A DNA stretch of 64,000 nt from Mycoplasmatota bacterium (GTDB lineage Bacteria > Bacillota_I > Bacilli_A > RF39 > UBA660), in the NCBI GenBank assembly GCA_022771205.1, contig JALFCF010000003.1, positions 200,085 to 264,084 on the forward strand, read 5' to 3'. Under the pieces are notes generated by a model. It saw only the letters and a list, made by a program, of their open reading frames with translations. It did not search any database and was not told where the DNA came from. The position numbers and the translations under genes are program-made. How positions within the stretch are numbered: position 1 is the first letter of the stretch; each line of letters starts with the position of its first letter. Of the stretch, positions 28,080-50,688 are shown piece by piece.

Positions 28080-28772
28080 CTAAAAATTACCTACAACAGT
28101 TCTTAAACGTTTAATTACTTTTTTCTCTATTCTAGAAATATATGATTGAGAAATACCAAGTTTTTCTGCGACCTCTTTTTGTGTTAATTCATCATGACCT
28201 AATAACCCATATCGTAAAACTATAATATCTCTATCCCTTGGTTTTAATTTCATTACTTCTTGAAGCATTATTTTTTTATCACTTGCTTGTTCTATTTCCT
28301 TAGTAACAATATCAGCATCAGTTCCTAATACATCTTCTAAATGAAGTTCATTACCTTCACCATCTAAAGATAAAGATGCATCTATACTAACTTCCGTTTT
28401 TGTTTTTTTATTCTTTCTAAGATGCATTAATATTTCATTATCAATACAACGGGAAGCATAAGTAGCAAGTTTTATATTTTTTCCACTTTGAAACGTTTGA
28501 ATTCCTTTAATGAGTCCAATTGTACCAATACTTACTAAATCTTCTAAATCAACCCCTGTATTCTCATACTTTTTAGCTAAAAAAACAACTAATCTTAAAT
28601 TATGTTCAATCAACATATCTTTTGCAGAACTATCTCCACGCTGCATTCTTTCAATATATAATTCTTCCATTTCTTTTGATAAAGGTTCTGGAAGCATATC
28701 TGTTGCTCCTACATAAAAAATACTAGTAACTCTAAAAAACAAAGACTTAAACCAAGTAATAAATTTTCTCAT
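28080..28772 (-). CDS. sigE: sporulation sigma factor pro-sigma-E
   Basis: Pro-sequence, LPEPLS, NLRLVV..AKKYENTG, KLATYASRCI.NEILM, LGISQSYISRIEKK; downstream of spoIIGA. Confidence 0.93.
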   Translation of the reverse strand: MRKFITWFKSLFFRVTSIFYVGATDMLPEPLSKEMEELYIERMQRGDSSAKDMLIEHNLRLVVFLAKKYENTGVDLEDLVSIGTIGLIKGIQTFQSGKNIKLATYASRCIDNEILMHLRKNKKTKTEVSIDASLSLDGEGNELHLEDVLGTDADIVTKEIEQASDKKIMLQEVMKLKPRDRDIIVLRYGLLGHDELTQKEVAEKLGISQSYISRIEKKVIKRLRTVVGNF

Positions 28773-29539
28773 AAATCCTCCTTAAAAACACTAGGTAAAA
28801 TACAATCAACACTCCCTAAAGCAAACTTATCATTACTAAATCCTATTAGGCATTTAGAAAACTCCACATTGCAAATTTTTACCAGTTCAACCTTTGAACA
28901 TCGAATCACTCCTTCTGTATTTAATGCCTTATATGGAACATAAAAATAATTAGAAATAGGAATATCTACATTAGCATTGAGTAAAATTACACTTTTACCC
29001 GTAGTAGGATCCCTAAGTTGATTACCAGTATCTAACATTCCCCTTAATCGATATACCTTTTCATCTTTATAAATTTCTACAGTATACAATAAAGAATTTT
29101 GCAATTTAGTTTTTTTAGAGTTTTTCACATAAAAACATAAAAATATAGGAGAAAGAATCAAAACGGCAACTAAATTAAGACCCAATCCTGAACCATAAAA
29201 TAAAACACCTTTATTTTGATAAGTAAAATTAATATCTAATAAATATAAAAATCCTCCTAAAATAATACTAATTAAGTAAAAATAAAGAAAGTCAGAAAAA
29301 AAGTTATTTTTCCCAAAAGTAATTAATACAATTAATATACTGATAATCACTTTACATATAAACAATATAAAATTTGAGAGTGATAGAAATAAAAGAAAAA
29401 TAGTGAGACTTCCAAAAAAACTACCTAAAACAATTCTTTTAATAGAAGTTGTTTCTTTTAAAACCAATTTAGTTGCATATAAAATTAAGAAATCAAAGAA
29501 AAAATTAATGAAAAAGACCAAATCCAAATACACTTTCAT
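28769..29539 (-). CDS. spoIIGA: sigma-E processing peptidase SpoIIGA
   Basis: VYLDLVFFINFFFDFLIL N-terminus, 5 TMs, GMLDTGNQLRDP aspartic protease motif. Confidence 0.93.
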   Translation of the reverse strand: MKVYLDLVFFINFFFDFLILYATKLVLKETTSIKRIVLGSFFGSLTIFLLFLSLSNFILFICKVIISILIVLITFGKNNFFSDFLYFYLISIILGGFLYLLDINFTYQNKGVLFYGSGLGLNLVAVLILSPIFLCFYVKNSKKTKLQNSLLYTVEIYKDEKVYRLRGMLDTGNQLRDPTTGKSVILLNANVDIPISNYFYVPYKALNTEGVIRCSKVELVKICNVEFSKCLIGFSNDKFALGSVDCILPSVFKEDL

Positions 29540-29555
29540 CTCTATCACCAAAATA

Positions 29556-40598: not shown

Positions 40599-43046
40599 TT
40601 ATTTAGTATAAACAAATACTTCTTCCTCAGCAGTAGGATTTAAAACCATATTTTCAACTATTGCATCAGCAATTTCTTCATTAGTAGTATAAGTTTCTGC
40701 AGTAGGTTCTTCATATTCAATAAATGTCTGTCCATCTGCTTCTCCTGCAGTAAAGGTACCATCTGGTTGATTACTATAATCTGGTTGATTTTTATCAAAT
40801 TCAGCACCCGTCTCATTTTGATCAGGTAAATCTTCACCAGCACCATTTCCATCAGTAGTTACATTACCAACACTATCATTTAAATCTCCCTGACTGTTAG
40901 AATGTTCATCATCAAAATCGCTACCATGACCTAAATCATCCTCATTAACAGTACCACCTTGATTAATAGTATCATTAGCATCTTCTATTTTATCTTGGAA
41001 ATCTTGATCATCTTTAGCGATTTCATCACGTATTTCTTCAGCATTCTTATCTGCTTCTTCTTGCATATGTTGTTGATTCTTTGCTGCTTCTTCCTCTCCC
41101 TTTGCTTTATTAGCTTCATTTTCTGTATCAAATTGCTTGTTAACCGCATCTTCTGCCTGTTTTACAGCATCTTCTCCTGCCATAGCCACAGCTTTATTAC
41201 GATCAGAAATTTCAGTTTTTGTTGTTTCCGTACGATAAGTAGTACTAGATGTAGAATATGTATCTACTACTTCTGTAACAATTTCTGAAATACTACCACT
41301 TGTAACAAAATTACCATTCTTATCTAGATTAAAATGACCATTAACCCATTTTTGGAATAAATCATATTGACTAATATCACGTTTTTCATCACTAACAAAA
41401 TAAATATTATCATCAGTCAATTCTTTTACTTTAGCATCCATAAATTGTTTGTAAGTTGGGATACTCTTATCATCATCTGCTAATAAGGTGATCTGTTCAG
41501 CACGTTCAAATTCTCCTTGAGCAAATTCACATAAACCTAAATCATTAAAATAAGTAACACCCTTATTAGATAAAGTATAATCTACTTCTAAATTCTGGAA
41601 CATCATCTCTGCAGCAGCAACCATAGGAGTAACTGATAATTTATAAGATTCAATATCATCACGAGATTGAGAATGAGATATTCCTACCTCCCTAACTTCA
41701 GAACTAATAGGAAAATCTTTATATAATTCTTGATAAAAAGCCTGAACAGCATTCAATTGTTCTTGACCAGTTGTCTCTTTGCATCTTAAAAATAGTTCAT
41801 TATATTTTTGATAAAACTTTCTTCCTTCTTCAGTATTTAATAAAGAATCCAACTTAACAGGAGCATCACGAGTTTCTAAAACAAATGCACCCATCAACTG
41901 CAATGTAGCTTCTTTATAACTACTAGTAAAATCTGCTGAACTAAGTTCTTCACCATTAAACATTGCTCTAATTTCTTCTTTAGAAAAATCATTATAGGCT
42001 AAATTAATAGCATTAACTTCTTCCCAAGTAAGTGCTGCACGCACTGTGGCATGATTTGATTCAAGATATTTATTAGCAAAAGTTCCATTAAAATAATCTA
42101 AATACTTACCAACTTTAGTCATCTCAGATTGCTGAATTTCATTATTTGTAACTTGTAATAACTGATCATAAGTTAAATTATCTAATAAATCATTTTTAAT
42201 TTGTCCAGACACAAGCATTTCTTTAACTTGTTCCAAAGAAAATTCACCAGAATTAATCATATTTAAAAGCTCTTGATCAGTTAACTCTTGTAACTCATCT
42301 TGTGTCAATTGCACTTGTTCTGGTTGTGCATTTTTAGAAGCATCAGGATTTGCACAACTACCTAATCCTAAAGCAAGTGTGAACGCAGTAACAGCCGCTG
42401 CAACTCTTTTAGCAAATCCTCTTCTAATTTTAGATTTTTTCCTTTTCTTATTATTTTTTCTATCTGCTACATTCTGTTTAATATACTCCTTAGTGCTTTC
42501 TTTAGCAGACTTAGCAGTAGAAGCTACCTTATCCTTTATAGATTTTTTGTCTTTCTTTTTATCAAACTTACGAACAACATGTACAGTAAGCCAATCAGCA
42601 AGTTGTTCAATTTTACCATAAGCTCCCATAGTAATACCACCAAAAATACCAACAACTAAACCTACTGTTTTCCCAAATATTCCTTTTTCCTTCTTTTTCT
42701 TTTTCTTCTTTCTATTAAAGATAGATTTAATAGTAAATTTTTTATCTTTCTCATCTTCTTCAGAAGATGATGTAGTTGAAGAACTAGTTTTTTCTTTCTT
42801 TCTTTTTTGACCAGCATCATATTCAAATACTTTACGATAATTTTCTAAATTCTTGCTTAACATTTCTGGAGTAGTTGTGGTAATCTTAACACCTGCTCGC
42901 TTAGCTTTTTTAATAGCGTCAGGAACAGAAACTATTCGCATACGTCCATCTTCATAGAAAACAGCCGCTACTTCCCAATCAGTAGTATGATTACCAACTC
43001 GATCTCTAACAGTAAATTTAACAACATTTAAAATTTTTGAATCCAT
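40599..43046 (-). CDS. large hypothetical membrane-anchored protein
   Basis: 815 aa; Lys-rich N-terminal 210 aa, hydrophobic helix ending LGLGSC, very acidic C-terminus. Confidence 0.85.
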   Translation of the reverse strand: MDSKILNVVKFTVRDRVGNHTTDWEVAAVFYEDGRMRIVSVPDAIKKAKRAGVKITTTTPEMLSKNLENYRKVFEYDAGQKRKKEKTSSSTTSSSEEDEKDKKFTIKSIFNRKKKKKKKEKGIFGKTVGLVVGIFGGITMGAYGKIEQLADWLTVHVVRKFDKKKDKKSIKDKVASTAKSAKESTKEYIKQNVADRKNNKKRKKSKIRRGFAKRVAAAVTAFTLALGLGSCANPDASKNAQPEQVQLTQDELQELTDQELLNMINSGEFSLEQVKEMLVSGQIKNDLLDNLTYDQLLQVTNNEIQQSEMTKVGKYLDYFNGTFANKYLESNHATVRAALTWEEVNAINLAYNDFSKEEIRAMFNGEELSSADFTSSYKEATLQLMGAFVLETRDAPVKLDSLLNTEEGRKFYQKYNELFLRCKETTGQEQLNAVQAFYQELYKDFPISSEVREVGISHSQSRDDIESYKLSVTPMVAAAEMMFQNLEVDYTLSNKGVTYFNDLGLCEFAQGEFERAEQITLLADDDKSIPTYKQFMDAKVKELTDDNIYFVSDEKRDISQYDLFQKWVNGHFNLDKNGNFVTSGSISEIVTEVVDTYSTSSTTYRTETTKTEISDRNKAVAMAGEDAVKQAEDAVNKQFDTENEANKAKGEEEAAKNQQHMQEEADKNAEEIRDEIAKDDQDFQDKIEDANDTINQGGTVNEDDLGHGSDFDDEHSNSQGDLNDSVGNVTTDGNGAGEDLPDQNETGAEFDKNQPDYSNQPDGTFTAGEADGQTFIEYEEPTAETYTTNEEIADAIVENMVLNPTAEEEVFVYTK

Positions 43047-43058
43047 ATTTTATCCCCC

Positions 43059-44558
43059 TTACTTTATAGGCTTTTTATAACCAGTGTAATACCAACCGTT
43101 ATTCAACAAATCAGTATCATTATATTTACTCCACTTAGTCATAGTCTTACCAGAATCTAATAATTTTCTAGTTTTAGTACTTTGATAGCAAACTGTTCCA
43201 TATAAAGGCTCATTTCTAGTTGCAATTTCAGATTCAGTAATATAACCATAAATCGGAATTGTTTTAGTAACAATTTCTCCGCAAGAAGCTGAAACAGAAG
43301 TAGAGCTATCAGAAGAAGTATCACTGGAACTACCACCTGGGACAGTTGTAGTACTTGTCACAGAAGATAATCCGCCAGTTCCCTTCCATACATAAGAATC
43401 ATAATAATAATCAGGCAATGTTGTACAAGTTTCTTCACAATAACTATAATTAGCACCAACAAATTTATATTGAGTAGTAGCAGTATCCCTTGGAGGATTT
43501 TTATAACTTGCTCTACCATTATATACCCATCCGCCGCTAGATTGACCATTAGAAGTAATCACTTGTTGAACAACTTTATATGTTGTAGTCGTAGTTGTAG
43601 CATAAGTAGTATTATTAATAATAACATAATTATATTTAGAACATGATTTTTGAGTATAAGAACCAGTTTGTTTTAAAACCTGACGCTTTTTCTCATATTT
43701 TTTTACATAAGTACCAATTTGTTCTTTCCGATCATATCTTTGTAATTTTTCTAAACATTTAGGATCTTTATCATTACAATTATGCTCTGGTGTAGAACAA
43801 CTTGTTTTAGTCCAATTAGACCAACTTGTCCATTGAGTAAATTTAGCATCCTGATTTTTCTGATATTCATACAAATAACCTTTTATTTTCTCTGGAGGTT
43901 CAGGTTTTTCATCTCCTGGATCTGGAAGTTCAGAATCAGGATTATCAGGAGTTGTACTATTATTATTATCATCGCCATAAACAGTATCATCAACTCCATC
44001 TTTAATAGGAACAGATGACGTAGGTTTACTTAGACTACTAGAAACTCCAGTAGATTTCTTTTCACAAATATAAGTATCACAATATGTATAGCAACCTAAA
44101 TGTACTAAAATATAATCTTCTTTTTCACTGTCTTTTAAGTTAACTTTTAATAGATATTCATTTTCCATCTTTGTGATTTTAACGTAACTCTTATCCACAT
44201 CACAAGCTTTATTATTTTTATCTACTAAAGCAACAATTAATTTCTTACCAATCATATCGCTCAAAGTCATAGTATCTGACTCTCCAACTTCCTTAGGAAG
44301 TCTTTCATCTGTATAATAAGAAATAGCAGCTTCTTTCATCCTATCCAAATTATCAGCAAATATTTGAGAAGTAAGTGGTGATAAATCAACATTAGCTTCT
44401 TTCGCATTAGTGATAACCGCCGGTTGAACAAATTTAGGCAATAACCAAGCAAACAAAAAAGCAAAGACAATCACCAAAATTAACTTTATAAAAAAATCTT
44501 TAAATGGTAACCCTCTTTTTTCATACTGTTCATTATACATATTATACAAATCCCCCAT
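43059..44558 (-). CDS. hypothetical surface protein (N-terminal TM, pilin-like helix, Ser/Thr/Cys/Trp-rich C-terminus)
   Basis: TM at aa 21-42; DNLDRMKEAAISYY; WTSWSNW..C motif. Confidence 0.8.
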   Translation of the reverse strand: MGDLYNMYNEQYEKRGLPFKDFFIKLILVIVFAFLFAWLLPKFVQPAVITNAKEANVDLSPLTSQIFADNLDRMKEAAISYYTDERLPKEVGESDTMTLSDMIGKKLIVALVDKNNKACDVDKSYVKITKMENEYLLKVNLKDSEKEDYILVHLGCYTYCDTYICEKKSTGVSSSLSKPTSSVPIKDGVDDTVYGDDNNNSTTPDNPDSELPDPGDEKPEPPEKIKGYLYEYQKNQDAKFTQWTSWSNWTKTSCSTPEHNCNDKDPKCLEKLQRYDRKEQIGTYVKKYEKKRQVLKQTGSYTQKSCSKYNYVIINNTTYATTTTTTYKVVQQVITSNGQSSGGWVYNGRASYKNPPRDTATTQYKFVGANYSYCEETCTTLPDYYYDSYVWKGTGGLSSVTSTTTVPGGSSSDTSSDSSTSVSASCGEIVTKTIPIYGYITESEIATRNEPLYGTVCYQSTKTRKLLDSGKTMTKWSKYNDTDLLNNGWYYTGYKKPIK

Positions 44559-45742: not shown

Positions 45743-45924
45743 AAAATCACCTCAATATTCTATAAATATTATAGCAAAAAGATATCTACTTTTCAAAAAA
45801 AATATCCTATTTAATTAAAATATAAAAATTTATAATTTTATACTTTAATAAACAAAAAGAAAATTTCATTTACACAATGAAATTTTTCTACATTTATTAC
45901 AACTAATTTCCTATTAATCACTTT

Positions 45925-47361
45925 CTATCTTTTGATATACTTTGTATGTAATAAATCTTTTGCTAAAGGGCTTCCCACACCTTTAAAGAATTTTTCATAA
46001 ATAGAAATAATATCTGGGTTATCATGACTACATCTAATTTTAGAATTATTATCTCTCTCATATAAGTTTTTAATTCTTTTCTCTTTTAACATTTTTTCAT
46101 CTTCTAAAAACACCTTTGGTTGTCCTCCACCACCAATACAACCACCTTCACAATTCATCACTTCAATAAAATGATATTTACATGTATTATTTCTAATATC
46201 TTCAATTATATTCTTTACATTAGTGATGCCATGAACAACCGCAACATTTAAAGTTATATCACCAATATGAATAGTTGCTTCTTTAAAATTTTCATATCCT
46301 CTAACATCATTAAAAACTACTGTATCAAGATTTTCTTTTGTAATCATATGATAAGCTGTTCTTAAAGCAGCTTCCATAACTCCACCAGTATTCCCAAAAA
46401 TAATACCAGCACCACTGCCTTCTCCAAGAACACTATCATAATCAGATTCTGGTATATCTTCATATTTTATATTCTTTTCCTTAATTATTTTAGCTAATTC
46501 TGATACTGTAATAACTAAATCTGTTCCGTTTATTTCTTCACGTGCAATTTCAAATTTTTTAGCAGTACATGGAGTAATAGCAACAGTATATGAATTATCT
46601 ATATTATTACTTTTACAAAAATACTCTTTAACAACTTTTCCCATCATTCCTATTGGACTCTTACAACTAGAAATATTGTCTAAAATATCAGGATAAAATT
46701 GTTCTGCATATTTAATCCAAGCTGGACAACAAGATGTAAACATTGGCAATTTCCCATTATTCTTCACCCTATTTACTAATTCATTAGCTTCTTCCATAAT
46801 AGTTAAATCTGCAGCAAAAGTAGTATCAAATACATATTTAAATCCTAACATTCTTAAGAATCCTATTAATTTTCTTTGTGAAAAAGTTCCAACTTCCATA
46901 CCAAAACATTCAGCAAAGGAAACTCTTACAGCAGGTGAAGTATACGCAATAGTAACTTTATTTCCTTCTAAAGCCTCATATAGCTCTTTTCTATTATCTT
47001 TAGGAATTAAAGCATTAACTGGACAAGTCTGAATACATTGCCCACAGTTAACACACAACTCACTATCTTTATCAAAAGTCATCCCTTCTTTTTTAGTACA
47101 AGTACTAACACACAAACCACAATTAATACAATTAGAATTAATTCTTTCTATAGAAACATTATTTTGACTTATTTTAACAGCGTTAGGAAATAAATCGTCA
47201 TCTTCTTTTTTATTCTCTACTTCGTCTTCCACTAATTCAAACATATCCTTACCAACTCCACACAATGGACAAGTCCAATCATCAGATAAATCCGCAAATT
47301 TAATTTCTTCTTTTTCATCATCATCATATATATATCCACATAGCATACATTTATACTTCAT
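45925..47361 (-). CDS. [FeFe]-hydrogenase (group A) with N-terminal rubredoxin and 2[4Fe-4S] ferredoxin domain
   Basis: CMLCGYIYD...WTCPLCG rubredoxin; CINCGLC and CVNCGQC; H-cluster motifs TSCCPAW, TPCTAKKFE, EVMNCEGGCIGGGGQP. Confidence 0.93.
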   Translation of the reverse strand: MKYKCMLCGYIYDDDEKEEIKFADLSDDWTCPLCGVGKDMFELVEDEVENKKEDDDLFPNAVKISQNNVSIERINSNCINCGLCVSTCTKKEGMTFDKDSELCVNCGQCIQTCPVNALIPKDNRKELYEALEGNKVTIAYTSPAVRVSFAECFGMEVGTFSQRKLIGFLRMLGFKYVFDTTFAADLTIMEEANELVNRVKNNGKLPMFTSCCPAWIKYAEQFYPDILDNISSCKSPIGMMGKVVKEYFCKSNNIDNSYTVAITPCTAKKFEIAREEINGTDLVITVSELAKIIKEKNIKYEDIPESDYDSVLGEGSGAGIIFGNTGGVMEAALRTAYHMITKENLDTVVFNDVRGYENFKEATIHIGDITLNVAVVHGITNVKNIIEDIRNNTCKYHFIEVMNCEGGCIGGGGQPKVFLEDEKMLKEKRIKNLYERDNNSKIRCSHDNPDIISIYEKFFKGVGSPLAKDLLHTKYIKR

Positions 47362-47437
47362 ATAACAACCTCCTAAATAACTTTTCTAAATATTTTTTTC
47401 AAATAAATACTTACCTATATCTATTGTATAATAAAAC

Positions 47438-47463
47438 AAAGACTAAATCAATTTGATTTAGTT
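47438..47463. repeat. hairpin element, copy 1
   Basis: AAAGACTAAATCA-ATT-TGATTTAGTT; equals the reverse complement of 48027-48051 apart from one indel. Confidence 0.8.
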
Positions 47464-47495: not shown

Positions 47496-47970
47496 CTATA
47501 CTTCAAAAAAGTTTTCTAATTTATTAATGTTTGATTTGATTTCAAAAATAATCTTCTTATAATTATCAATAGTAATATCTAAACTTATTGGTATCCTAAT
47601 AAGATAATCATTTTTATTTGGATCTGAGCAAATTTCAAACGGACATTTAGTTTTGCAAAGATCCATATAATAATCATTTTGAATTTTTTTATTATAATCA
47701 GACAACCATACTTCAAACATAAAAGTTTTACGAATAAATATCACTTGAAGTTTTAAACCCATTTTCTTCCATTTTTTATTGGTCATTTGAAAATATGTAA
47801 AATTCATTTTATTTTCAATGATCCTATTCATAAAATTATAAGTAGTGAAATCTTTTTCAAGCCCATTGAAACATATTGTATAAATTTCAAAACACGTTGA
47901 TAGCATTCTTGAATATTCGTATTTTTGATCAAACTTTTATATTCAACAAATAATTCTTTATTAAAACCAT
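47496..47970 (-). pseudogene. frameshifted gene (DUF7000-like), two single-base deletions in homopolymer runs
   Basis: AAGGTG RBS + ATG at 47970; adding one base at 47963-66 and one at 47853-57 gives MVFNKELFVEYKSLIKNTNIQECYQRVLKFI...KDFTTY...FEVWLSDYNKKIQ. Confidence 0.65.
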
Positions 47971-48066: not shown

Positions 48067-50688
48067 TTATTTGTTTCTAATAGCAGCTTGAGCAGCAGCA
48101 AGTCTTGCAACTGGTACTCTGAATGGAGAACAAGATACATAATTTAGTCCTACTCTATGACAGAAGTCAATTGTCTTAGGATCCCCACCATGTTCACCAC
48201 AAATTCCAAGTTCCAAATCACTTCTAGTTTTTCTACCAAGAGTTGAAGCCATATCAATAAGTTTTCCAACTCCATCTTGATCAACAGTAGCAAATGGATC
48301 TTGATCTAAAATACCTTTTTGATAATAATCACTCAAATATTTAGAAGCATCATCTCTAGAGAATCCAAATGTCATTTGAGTTAAATCGTTTGTACCAAAA
48401 CTAAAGAACTCAGCTTCTTCTGCAATCTTATCAGCTAAAAGAGCTGCCCTTGGAATTTCAATCATTGTACCAACTTTATAATCAACGGTAACTCCTGCTT
48501 TATCCATAACTTCCTTAGCAGTGTCAACAACTACTTTTTTAACAAATTGTAACTCTTTCAAAATGCCAACCAACGGAATCATAATTTCAGGATGCACTTC
48601 AATTCCTTCTTTTTTAACATTAATAGCAGCTTCAATAACAGCTCTAGTTTGCATTTTAGCAATTTCTGGATAAGTAATAGCTAAACGACATCCACGATGT
48701 CCCATCATAGGGTTAAATTCTTTTAATGAATCCACTCTATTTTTTAAAGTTTCATAAGTAATTCCTAAACTATCAGCAAGAGGTCTCATCTCTTCTTCAG
48801 TCTTAGGTAAAAATTCATGTAGTGGTGGATCTAAGAAACGAATAATAACACATTTATCGTCCATAGCTCTAAATAATCCCTCAAAATCATCTCTTTGATA
48901 AGGTAATATCTTTTCTAGTGCTGCTTTTCTAGACTCTAAATCAGTAGCAGTAATCATCTTACGGAAATTAAAGATTCTTTCTTCATCAAAGAACATATGC
49001 TCTGTACGGCAAAGACCAATTCCTTCAGCGCCAAACTTTTTAGCTTGTAATGCATCTCTAGGAGTATCAGCATTAGTATAAACTTCTAATGTACGGTATT
49101 GATCTGCCCACTCCATAAATGTTTCGAAATTTCCAGTAATACTAGCTTCAACAGTTTTAACTTGTTCAGCATACACTTTACCAGTACTACCATCCAAACT
49201 AATATAGTCTCCTTCTTTTAAAATACGTCCATCTTTTAATGTTAAAGTCTTTTTCTCCTCATCAATAACTAGACCACTGCATCCAGATACACAGCAAGTT
49301 CCCATACCACGAGCAACTACAGCAGCATGACTTGTCATACCACCACGAAGAGTTAAAACCCCATGAGCAAGGTTCATTCCTTCAATATCTTCAGGTGAAG
49401 TTTCTAAACGAACTAAAATAATATCCTCTACTCCATCTTTATGCATGCGAATAACATCATCTGCAGTAAATGCAATATGACCAGTAGCAGCTCCAGGAGA
49501 AGCAGCAAGTCCTTCAGCAACGCATTCTGCGGCTTTTAAACTAGCATCATCAAACATAGGATGAAGTAATTGATCAAGTTGCTTTGGATCAACCATCAAC
49601 AATGCTTGTTCTTTTGTAATCATTCCTTCATTAACCATATCAACAGCAATTTTTAATGCTGCAGTAGCAGTACGTTTACCATTTCTAGTTTGAAGCATAA
49701 AAAGTTTTCCATCTTCAATAGTAAACTCCATATCTTGCATATCTTTATAATGTTCTTCAAGAATCTTACAAATTTTACTAAATTCATCATAACATTCTGG
49801 CATTACTTCTTTTAATGTATCAATAGATTGAGGCGTTCTAATACCAGCAACAACATCTTCACCTTGAGCATTCATTAAATACTCACCAAACAAATGATTT
49901 TCTCCAGTAGCAGGATTTCTAGTAAATGCAACTCCTGTACCAGAAGTTTCTCCGCGGTTTCCATAAACCATTTCTTGAACATTAACAGCAGTACCCCAAC
50001 TACTTGGAATATCATTTAAGCGACGATAAGTAATTGCTCTATCATTCATCCAACTTCTAAATACAGCTTTAACAGCAGCCATTAATTGTTCTCTTGGATC
50101 CTGTGGAAAATCACATCCAGCAAGTTTTTTATATTCTTCTTTATAAATAGTAACAACTTCTTCTAAATCTTCGGCTGTAAGTTCAGTATCAAGTTCTACT
50201 CCCTTTTCTTCTTTTATAGCATCAAACTTTCTTTCAAAAGAAGACTTTGGAAATTCCATAACAACATCTGCAAACATTTGAATAAAACGACGATATGAAT
50301 CATAAACAAAACGTTTATTATTCGTAACTTCACTAAATCCTACTGCAACCTCATCATTCATTCCAAGATTCAAGATAGTATCCATCATACCAGGCATACT
50401 AGCACGTGCTCCACTACGAACAGACACTAACAAAGGATTCTTTTTATCTCCAAATGTTTTACCAGTAATCTCTTCTAATTGATGAATTTTTTCATCAATT
50501 TGATCTGTGATTTCATCAGTTAACTTACGATTGTTTTCATAATAACTAGTACAAGCTTCAGTAGTTACGGTAAAACCACGAGGTACTGGTAATCCTATAT
50601 TAGTCATTTCTGCTAAATTAGCACCTTTTCCTCCTAATAGATTTCTCATATCTTTACTGCCTTCAGTAAATAAATAGACGTATTTCAT
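48067..50688 (-). CDS. ppdK: pyruvate, phosphate dikinase
   Basis: LGGKGANLAEM, SVRSGARASMPGMMDT, GGMTSHAAVVARG, GIGLCRTEHMF, FSFGTNDLTQ, GICGEHGGDP. Confidence 0.98.
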   Translation of the reverse strand: MKYVYLFTEGSKDMRNLLGGKGANLAEMTNIGLPVPRGFTVTTEACTSYYENNRKLTDEITDQIDEKIHQLEEITGKTFGDKKNPLLVSVRSGARASMPGMMDTILNLGMNDEVAVGFSEVTNNKRFVYDSYRRFIQMFADVVMEFPKSSFERKFDAIKEEKGVELDTELTAEDLEEVVTIYKEEYKKLAGCDFPQDPREQLMAAVKAVFRSWMNDRAITYRRLNDIPSSWGTAVNVQEMVYGNRGETSGTGVAFTRNPATGENHLFGEYLMNAQGEDVVAGIRTPQSIDTLKEVMPECYDEFSKICKILEEHYKDMQDMEFTIEDGKLFMLQTRNGKRTATAALKIAVDMVNEGMITKEQALLMVDPKQLDQLLHPMFDDASLKAAECVAEGLAASPGAATGHIAFTADDVIRMHKDGVEDIILVRLETSPEDIEGMNLAHGVLTLRGGMTSHAAVVARGMGTCCVSGCSGLVIDEEKKTLTLKDGRILKEGDYISLDGSTGKVYAEQVKTVEASITGNFETFMEWADQYRTLEVYTNADTPRDALQAKKFGAEGIGLCRTEHMFFDEERIFNFRKMITATDLESRKAALEKILPYQRDDFEGLFRAMDDKCVIIRFLDPPLHEFLPKTEEEMRPLADSLGITYETLKNRVDSLKEFNPMMGHRGCRLAITYPEIAKMQTRAVIEAAINVKKEGIEVHPEIMIPLVGILKELQFVKKVVVDTAKEVMDKAGVTVDYKVGTMIEIPRAALLADKIAEEAEFFSFGTNDLTQMTFGFSRDDASKYLSDYYQKGILDQDPFATVDQDGVGKLIDMASTLGRKTRSDLELGICGEHGGDPKTIDFCHRVGLNYVSCSPFRVPVARLAAAQAAIRNK

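Follow-up and report, generated by a model that had tools for sequence, protein, structure and literature searches.

The 64,000-nucleotide window analyzed here, from a Mycoplasmatota bacterium (GenBank assembly GCA_022771205.1, contig JALFCF010000003.1, positions 200,085 to 264,084 of the forward strand), carries at positions 45925-47361 of its minus strand the gene of a monomeric, group A, M2-type [FeFe]-hydrogenase to whose distal end a canonical rubredoxin is joined by a flexible, acidic linker. The residues around its active site and the gene neighborhoods of its relatives suggest that this enzyme probably oxidizes H2 at an H-cluster of the type found in CpII and HydR, and that the electrons leave through its F-clusters and the tethered rubredoxin toward a rubrerythrin-type defense.

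An open reading frame (ORF) of 478 amino acids plus stop fills exactly the interval 45925-47361 on the minus strand, on which all gene features given below lie, and the plus-strand reading of the same interval is riddled with stops. The ORF listing, Pfam, NCBIfam, AlphaFold2 and Foldseek identify it as a complete gene encoding, in this order, a rubredoxin, a linker, a domain with two [4Fe-4S] clusters and an H-domain. The N-terminal module (residues 1-44; 47230-47361) matches the rubredoxin family PF00301 over residues 2-41 (E 1e-9, 38.7 bits against a cutoff of 23) and is canonical, with an aromatic core and the two knuckles C5xxC8G and C31PxC34G that hold the Fe(Cys)4 ligands C5, C8, C31 and C34. 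It aligns without gaps to the solved 45-residue rubredoxins 6NW0 and 6RXN (E ~1e-12) and, as judged by eye, is about 60% identical to the rubredoxin of Clostridium pasteurianum over the aligned residues. In an AlphaFold2 model built from 52 homologs, with a predicted local distance difference test (pLDDT) of 87.7 and a predicted template modeling score of 0.84, the rubredoxin module is folded (pLDDT 73-89) and is followed by a linker (residues 45-60, EDEVENKKEDDDLFPN; 47182-47229) that is acidic and predicted to be disordered, with pLDDT below 50 at residues 46-53 and close to 60 from there to residue 60. Among homologs, the last rubredoxin cysteine is separated from the first F-cluster cysteine by 31-84 residues, mostly 31-52. 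A solved hydroxylamine reductase (7E0L/7WSX) also begins with a rubredoxin, and its alignment to the query covers residues 1-55, reaching the first part of the linker, which shows that rubredoxin is plugged into the N-terminus of other redox enzymes as well.

The remainder of the protein is an [FeFe]-hydrogenase in all its essential parts. The F-domain (residues 61-125; 46987-47181) contains two Fer4 motifs recognized by Pfam at residues 76-118, with cysteines 78, 81, 84 and 88 and cysteines 103, 106, 109 and 113 as ligands of its two [4Fe-4S] clusters. It is followed by the H-cluster catalytic domain (residues 136-412; 46126-46956; Fe_hyd_lg_C, PF02906, E 1e-92) and by a small-subunit-like segment at the C-terminus (residues 426-478; 45928-46086; Fe_hyd_SSU, PF02256, E 1e-19). 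Residue numbering was transferred to the query and to 120 homologs from a CpI reference sequence identical at 573 of 574 positions to PDB 1FEH/3C8Y. All eight F-cluster cysteines map to the FS4A and FS4B ligands of CpI and are kept in 119 of the 120 homologs, and the H-cluster ligands C212, C265, C404 and C408 are all present. The proton pathway is likewise intact, comprising C211 (CpI C299), E191 (E279), E194 (E282), R198 (R286) and S231 (S319); these residues and K268, the equivalent of CpI K358, are invariant or nearly so among the homologs. The preliminary description of this gene, made from its letters alone, had reported the N-terminal rubredoxin, the two-cluster domain and every H-cluster cysteine, the proton-transfer one included, and the Pfam matches and the CpI mapping bear this out.

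NCBIfam places the protein in group A (TIGR02512, 436.4 bits against a cutoff of 405.95). Assignment to group B was rejected, since TIGR04105 reaches 187.8 bits against a cutoff of 450. Sensory, HydS-type group C enzymes are known to lose the proton-transfer cysteine and to carry an additional C-terminal cluster or PAS domain (PMC6984386), and this group was rejected as well, because C211 is kept and neither a C-terminal extension nor a PAS domain was found. No NuoE/NuoF-like, GltD-like or formate dehydrogenase gene adjoins the hydrogenase gene, which is compatible with group A1 and led to rejection of the bifurcating A3 type, none of whose partner-subunit genes is present next to it.

The residues that surround the H-cluster depart from CpI in a consistent manner. 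With respect to CpI, an A1 enzyme of M3 layout that is 40% identical to the query, superimposes on its model with a Foldseek template modeling score of 0.82 and shares its ligands and proton pathway, the query lacks two additional N-terminal cluster domains and carries the changes A230S, I268T, Q325I, Q326G, M353T, S357A and A498N, all seven of which are clade-wide. Ser142, at the position of CpI A230, opens the SPAVR motif (residues 142-146; 46924-46938) and is CpII-like; T180 occupies the position of I268. The L1 motif TSCCPAW (residues 209-215; 46717-46737) holds the proton-transfer cysteine C211 and the [4Fe-4S]H ligand C212, and the clade signature KSPIG (residues 234-238; 46648-46662) places Ile-Gly at CpI Gln325-Gln326. 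In the L2 motif TPCTAKKFE (residues 263-271; 46549-46575), Thr263 and Ala267 stand at CpI M353 and S357, and in the L3 motif EVMNCEGGCIGGGGQP (residues 400-415; 46117-46164), which provides the ligands C404 and C408, Asn403 stands at CpI A498. The three motifs fit the group A H-cluster patterns TSCCPxW, (M/T)PCxxKxxE and ExMxCxxGCxxGGGQP. Threonine is found at the M353 position in all 120 homologs, serine at A230 in 112, Ile-Gly at Q325-Q326 in 119 and asparagine at A498, within the motif E[IV]MNCxGGC, also in 119. The presence of TPC instead of MPC and of SPAVR instead of APxVR had been noted in the preliminary description, which ascribed such threonine and serine residues to the H2-oxidation-biased CpII as well, and this agrees with the published correspondence of CpI A230/I268/M353 with S99/T137/T223 of CpII (PMC5506873). 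Asn403 and Ile237-Gly238 are clade-wide substitutions without a described role.

This pattern brings the query close to two characterized enzymes. The L2 motif reads MPCTSKKFE in CpI, TPCTAKKYE in CpII and TPCTAKKFE in CperHydR (PMC11926857), a HydA-rubredoxin-rubrerythrin-rubredoxin chimera of Clostridium perfringens that acts as an H2-dependent H2O2 reductase (Taylor et al., 2025; PMC11926857). CperHydR shows no detectable H2-evolution current, and its spectroscopy is CpII-like (PMC11926857). Both enzymes have a bridging CO that vibrates at low frequency. The query L2 is identical to that of CperHydR, which could be compared through its published motif only, and both have an M2 HydA core with a rubredoxin Fe(Cys)4 center on the same polypeptide as a CpII-like HydA. 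The link to rubrerythrin that CperHydR embodies is seen in relatives of the query, both as operons and as fusions. The two proteins differ in that HydR has C-terminal rubredoxins flanking a split rubrerythrin, whereas the query has a single canonical rubredoxin at its N-terminus, and in that the query gives no match to the rubrerythrin diiron family PF02915, a domain that is present in four relatives (L041, L047, L049 and L053) and in a 686-residue protein recovered by an exhaustive search of representative sequences (P0127, WP_021429872.1). Without a diiron domain, the query is not a HydR. P0127 is composed of HydA, a rubredoxin, a diiron region and a second rubredoxin, and the annotation of its 90% cluster names Paraclostridium bifermentans and P. 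dentum and reads '[FeFe] hydrogenase, group A / rubrerythrin'. Over query residues 62-478 the identity is 49%, and P0127 has TSPAVR, KSPIG and TPCTAKKFE in common with the query, but reads MTC in L3 where the query reads MNC. CpII of C. pasteurianum shares with the query, by its published residues, the M2 layout with two [4Fe-4S] clusters, the Ser/Thr/Thr set, an L2 of the form TPCTAKK(Y/F)E and the alanine at CpI S357. It is an M2 enzyme in which one F-cluster has an unusually high potential of -140 mV and, unlike the query, it has no rubredoxin, working instead with ferredoxin to recapture the H2 of nitrogenase.

The query belongs to a large family. The preliminary description had implied that such a fusion is rare, a notion that database searches overturned: the same architecture occurs in more than 100 clusters (at 90% identity) of a large protein database, 54-99% identical to the query, and a search of one genome per species with the motifs ITPCTAKK and [YF]IE[IV]MNCxG returned at least 562 relatives. 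The closest match, 89% identical, comes from an uncultured Bacilli bacterium, and the exact gene is found mainly in pig-gut and fecal metagenomes. Locus comparisons were carried out on the best 80 of these at least 562 species-representative genomes, from which 79 hydrogenase genes were recovered. Nearly all of the 80 are uncultured gut metagenome-assembled genomes (MAGs) from human, pig, rabbit, goat, deer and chicken, labeled Bacilli, Erysipelotrichaceae, Tenericutes/Mollicutes, Candidatus Coprovivens, Candidatus Ventrenecus and, in some cases, Clostridia. An N-terminal module, scored as CxxC...CxxC ahead of the first ferredoxin motif, is present in 62 of the 79 genes and comes in two types: canonical, with a spacing of 20-21 residues from knuckle to knuckle that the query shares, or a rubrerythrin-type mini module, with a spacing of 11-16 residues, that matches PF21349, the Fe-binding rubredoxin-like domain of rubrerythrin. 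In three Erysipelotrichaceae genes (L059, L066 and L082, from Anaerorhabdus and Traorella MAGs), a canonical rubredoxin lies at the C-terminus, indicating that the domain is modular, as expected of an electron-transfer plug-in. Three other genes (L052, L055 and L065) have an additional N-terminal 2×[4Fe-4S] ferredoxin domain at the position taken by rubredoxin elsewhere, and eleven, including those of Paraclostridium and Acidaminococcus, have no extra module. The rubredoxin-less genes of Paraclostridium (L080 and L084) are directly followed by hydE and hydG and, in L084, also by a gene for a hydF-like GTPase, which indicates that the members of the clade are true hydrogenases that depend on maturases. 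The 686-residue HydR-type chimera of the P0127 cluster is likewise encoded in Paraclostridium, not necessarily in the same species or genomes. The representative search further returned a predicted protein of 4122 residues with seven hydrogenase-like stretches (P0121, 1778 bits), which may be a giant multi-hydrogenase protein or an artefact of gene calling or assembly.

The strongest indication of the physiological partner comes from the neighborhoods of these relatives. When neighboring ORFs were clustered across the 80 loci, only two families were found to recur beside the hydrogenase gene: rubrerythrin, identified by PF02915 and PF21349 and by an NCBIfam equivalog (258 bits against a cutoff of 200), and a Fur-family regulator. 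In 15 loci a rubrerythrin gene precedes or follows the hydrogenase gene in the same orientation, no more than about 120 bp away, and a tblastn search added fusions in which rubrerythrin lay inside the hydrogenase ORF (three of them found in this way), so that a rubredoxin-HydA-rubrerythrin protein is encoded by a single ORF in four further species (L041, L047, L049 and L053). Adjacency or fusion is confined to loci with the N-terminal module, where it is seen in 19 of 62, against none of the 17 without it (Fisher P = 0.005), and rubrerythrin adjacency is far from random expectation (P < 1e-19). The Fur-family gene is placed directly upstream in 12 of the rubrerythrin-linked loci. Metagenomic relatives at 65% and 62% identity also present tight operons of Fur, rubrerythrin and rubredoxin-HydA genes, with the stop of rbr overlapping the start of hydA in one of them; four other sampled relatives, including one at 72% identity, have no rbr nearby. 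The arrangement expected of a split HydR, perR-rbr-RdhydA, is found in 15 loci and two further contigs, and nowhere in the window. A distance tree computed from the catalytic domain joins the query to L005 and L006. In each of the outgroups closest to it (L007, L037 and L017) an rbr gene sits beside the hydrogenase gene, accompanied by a Fur gene in L007. The adjacency kept by these sister lineages has therefore been lost in the lineage of the query. The triple fusions (L041, 3992-6118; L047, L049 and L053) encode proteins of about 700 residues, each behind a Fur-family gene, in an order unlike that of the published HydA-rubredoxin-rubrerythrin-rubredoxin chimera. The L041-type fusion recurs at 700-708 residues on several independent contigs, and is thus not an assembly artefact.

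Rubredoxins titrate near -80 to +50 mV, some 350-450 mV above the H+/H2 couple, and electrons can consequently flow through the rubredoxin only from H2 outwards. In the mechanism that we consider probable, H2 would be split at an H-cluster with the uptake-biased second coordination sphere of CpII and HydR, and the electrons would travel by way of the two [4Fe-4S] F-clusters, proximal and distal, to the Fe(Cys)4 center of the tethered rubredoxin. The rubredoxin would then hand single electrons to rubrerythrin, which would turn H2O2 to water, and other rubredoxin-dependent enzymes that detoxify O2 or reactive oxygen species (ROS), encoded elsewhere in the genome, may also be fed. The protein would act as an H2:rubredoxin oxidoreductase that draws on ambient gut H2 in place of NAD(P)H for oxidative-stress defense, constituting the hydrogenase half, with its rubredoxin at the N-terminus, of a HydR-type H2-dependent peroxide reductase split over separate polypeptides. 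An H2-consuming enzyme tied to oxidative-stress protection had already been proposed in the preliminary description, and that proposal gains from the CpII-type residues, the identity of L2 with that of CperHydR and the rubrerythrin linkage of the relatives, whereas no rubrerythrin, Fur/PerR, flavodiiron or maturase gene in the window comes to its aid.

Several observations weigh against the proposed route. The linkage evidence derives entirely from relatives and not from the window, where tblastn returned nothing at E<=1 with hydE, hydG and hydF of Paraclostridium, with a rubrerythrin or with a Fur-family protein as query, and where no flavodiiron protein or superoxide reductase is encoded; all of these tblastn queries recovered their positive controls. 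An ORF check of the window for a radical-SAM CxxxCxxC protein of fitting size was negative too, as the preliminary description had stated for hydEFG. A rubrerythrin-type partner and the maturases are hence assumed to be present in this genome. Only about 30% of the rubredoxin-bearing relatives are linked to rubrerythrin, and those nearest to the query (85-89% and 72% identity) are not among them. The regulator is no more than PerR-like, for its best matches are PerR models with scores under the NCBIfam cutoffs. The direction of catalysis and the electron path via rubredoxin are inferred, the catalytic bias from correlated residues, and the Thr/Ser/Ala residues correlate with uptake bias in just two characterized enzymes, one of which, CpII, still evolves H2 at low potential (PMC11926857). 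No member with an N-terminal rubredoxin has been characterized biochemically in the literature found. Contigs from four gut (meta)transcriptome runs span the gene at a depth similar to that of its neighbors, showing that it is real and transcribed in gut samples, with the reservation that one RNA run may contain DNA.

A broader version of the H2-to-rubredoxin proposal, which we advance tentatively, holds that the protein is a stand-alone hub through which gut H2 serves as direct reductant of the whole rubredoxin-dependent O2/ROS defense, under PerR-like control, in hundreds of species, mostly uncultured gut Bacilli and Erysipelotrichales-like organisms with some Clostridia, and that the conserved Asn and Ile-Gly are added determinants of bias. 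If so, gut H2 would be an antioxidant currency for strict anaerobes. In clostridia, a PerR-controlled defense runs from NADH:rubredoxin oxidoreductase (NROR) through rubredoxin to (reverse) rubrerythrin, flavodiiron proteins and desulfoferrodoxin, and Desulfovibrio vulgaris has a perR-rbr-rdl operon. The system proposed here resembles the clostridial pathway in its use of rubredoxin as hub carrier and, in relatives of the query, in a PerR-like regulator gene beside rbr; it differs in the reductant, which is NAD(P)H delivered by NROR in clostridia and would here be H2, with the hydrogenase replacing NROR. A functional precedent next to CperHydR is the [NiFe]-hydrogenase FrhAGB of Thermococcus onnurineus, which uses H2 to reduce free rubredoxin in the service of oxidative-stress defense (PMC13333549, 2026). 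The physiology is the one proposed here, from H2 through rubredoxin to antioxidant enzymes, but FrhAGB belongs to an unrelated enzyme class and its rubredoxin is a separate protein. The use of H2 as reductant for a partner catalytic module is also seen in HydA2 of the hydrogen-dependent CO2 reductase of Thermoanaerobacter kivui (7QV7), which is the best match among solved structures (E 5e-111), ahead of bifurcating HydA1 enzymes, CbA5H, DdH and CpI. HydA2 is an M2-type group A enzyme like the query, but it has MPC and APAIR, lacks a rubredoxin and operates in a filamentous multi-subunit complex with formate dehydrogenase.

An unlikely but serious alternative is that the query is also, or mainly, an ordinary fermentative, ferredoxin-dependent hydrogenase that evolves H2, with reduced ferredoxin docking at the distal cluster, as it does in other M2 enzymes, and rubredoxin acting as a side branch or safety valve to O2/ROS defense. 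The group A M2 layout and the intact proton pathway are those of H2 producers, CpII-type enzymes keep their H2-evolution activity, most rubredoxin-bearing relatives have no adjacent rubrerythrin, and the gene itself sits among housekeeping genes, beside that of pyruvate phosphate dikinase; small-genome gut Bacilli may, moreover, have few hydrogenases. These points are offset by the restriction of the rubrerythrin and PerR-like linkage, and of the fusions, to rubredoxin-bearing members, and by an L2 identical to that of the uptake-only CperHydR. A tethered high-potential center near the distal cluster would, furthermore, drain electrons from H+ reduction, and the coexistence in one MAG of a rubredoxin-bearing gene (L008) and a rubredoxin-less paralog (L028) implies that the two have distinct roles.

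It is improbable that the direction from H2 to rubredoxin is as proposed but that the acceptor in this organism is another enzyme, such as a flavodiiron O2/NO reductase, a superoxide reductase or a hybrid-cluster/hydroxylamine reductase. The absence of rbr from the window and from the loci of the closest relatives is what such an acceptor would lead one to expect, clostridial rubredoxin is known to serve several enzymes of this kind, and the hydroxylamine reductase 7E0L/7WSX has an N-terminal rubredoxin of its own; no gene for any of them, however, recurs beside the 80 loci, where rubrerythrin is the sole recurrent redox neighbor. Slightly less credence still can be given to a self-protecting hydrogenase, the other possibility raised in the preliminary description, in which electrons from the rubredoxin would reduce O2 at or near the H-cluster or stabilize an O2-protected state. 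A gut habitat with O2 gradients and a high-potential center on the relay are in keeping with this idea, but it finds no support because CperHydR, its closest characterized analog, is O2-sensitive: despite its rubredoxin centers and rubrerythrin, CperHydR is degraded by O2 and forms no protected Hinact-type state (PMC11926857). In the query, Phe208 precedes TSCCP as in the O2-sensitive CpI, and the genomic linkage indicates an external peroxidase partner. Finally, a structural Zn-ribbon with a part in dimerization or folding and no redox role, as might be suggested by the mini modules of many relatives, with 11-16 residues between knuckles, and by the SLBB accessory domain of CbA5H, which binds Zn and mediates dimerization, is very hard to reconcile with the full canonical rubredoxin and aromatic core of the query, with the match of the mini modules to the Fe-binding PF21349 and with a rubrerythrin linkage that favors electron transfer.

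The concept of H2-driven peroxide detoxification has been known since 2025, and the new leads are the breadth of the family in gut Bacilli, the modular placement of rubredoxin, the PerR-like operons and the conserved Asn and Ile-Gly. The N-terminal rubredoxin-hydrogenase fusion is not described in the literature found, subscription surveys being outside that search, so that an earlier bioinformatic mention is possible; among the sub-classes screened by Land et al., only the C-terminal rubredoxin-rubrerythrin-rubredoxin form appears. If the proposed flow of electrons from H2 through rubredoxin to rubrerythrin is correct, H2-driven peroxide detoxification would be common among gut anaerobes not yet in culture rather than a single clostridial curiosity, and would be built in modular fashion with rubredoxin at either terminus and rubrerythrin separate or fused. 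It would also amount to an extra sink for gut H2, presumably counted as H2-producing group A1 in current surveys, and would bear on models of gut H2 cycling and of oxygen tolerance in commensals. For enzymologists, the family would offer an [FeFe]-hydrogenase that is small, monomeric and uptake-type by nature, in which the rubredoxin doubles as an optical reporter of redox state, and the conserved second-sphere substitutions (Ser, Thr, Ile-Gly, Thr, Ala and Asn) provide material for probing catalytic bias.

At the locus itself, the ATG of the hydrogenase gene is preceded at 7 nt by a strong Shine-Dalgarno sequence, AGGAGG (47369-47374, minus strand), visible in the letters themselves, and a promoter scan marks a promoter-like site, TTGATT-17-TACAAT (47423-47451, minus strand), as weak evidence of a start: the depth of an RNA contig falls upstream of it, and the sigma-70 scan as a whole returned 23 sites against 18.5 ± 4.7 in shuffled sequences, with no enrichment over chance. 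Inspection by eye upstream of the gene revealed no convincing PerR-box-like palindrome. Just past the stop codon, an AT-rich hairpin followed by a U-run (45846-45899, minus strand), which folds at -13.1 kcal/mol (z = -5.65, with none of 200 shuffles as stable) and was overlooked by a consensus terminator scan, is likely an intrinsic terminator, and on account of it the hydrogenase gene is probably monocistronic here.

The window has a GC content of 29% and contains housekeeping and sporulation genes. Directly upstream of the hydrogenase gene lies a DUF7000 ORF (47496-47906, minus strand), which the RNA runs cover far more thinly than they do the hydrogenase gene. A metatranscriptome contig (run X25) joins position 50499 to position 47381 with 14 unmatched letters, GAATCCTCCCTTTC, in between, and is either a chimera or the trace of a strain variant in which the DUF7000 ORF is missing together with the greater part of the gene for pyruvate phosphate dikinase. 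One run presents a 3-nt in-frame deletion at 47315, in the acidic loop of the rubredoxin module, that matches a variant of 477 residues and 99% identity (P0001). On the other side of the gene, two large ORFs of 815 and 499 amino acids (40599-44558, minus strand) have no Pfam match; they are of low complexity, rich in Lys/Glu and in Ser/Thr, with hydrophobic N-proximal segments, are kept in every contig that carries the hydrogenase gene, and may encode surface or secreted proteins. At 28080-29551 (minus strand), ORFs recognized by eye only as sigma-factor-like and SpoIIGA-like suggest a spore-former, the closest genomes being labeled just 'Bacilli'.

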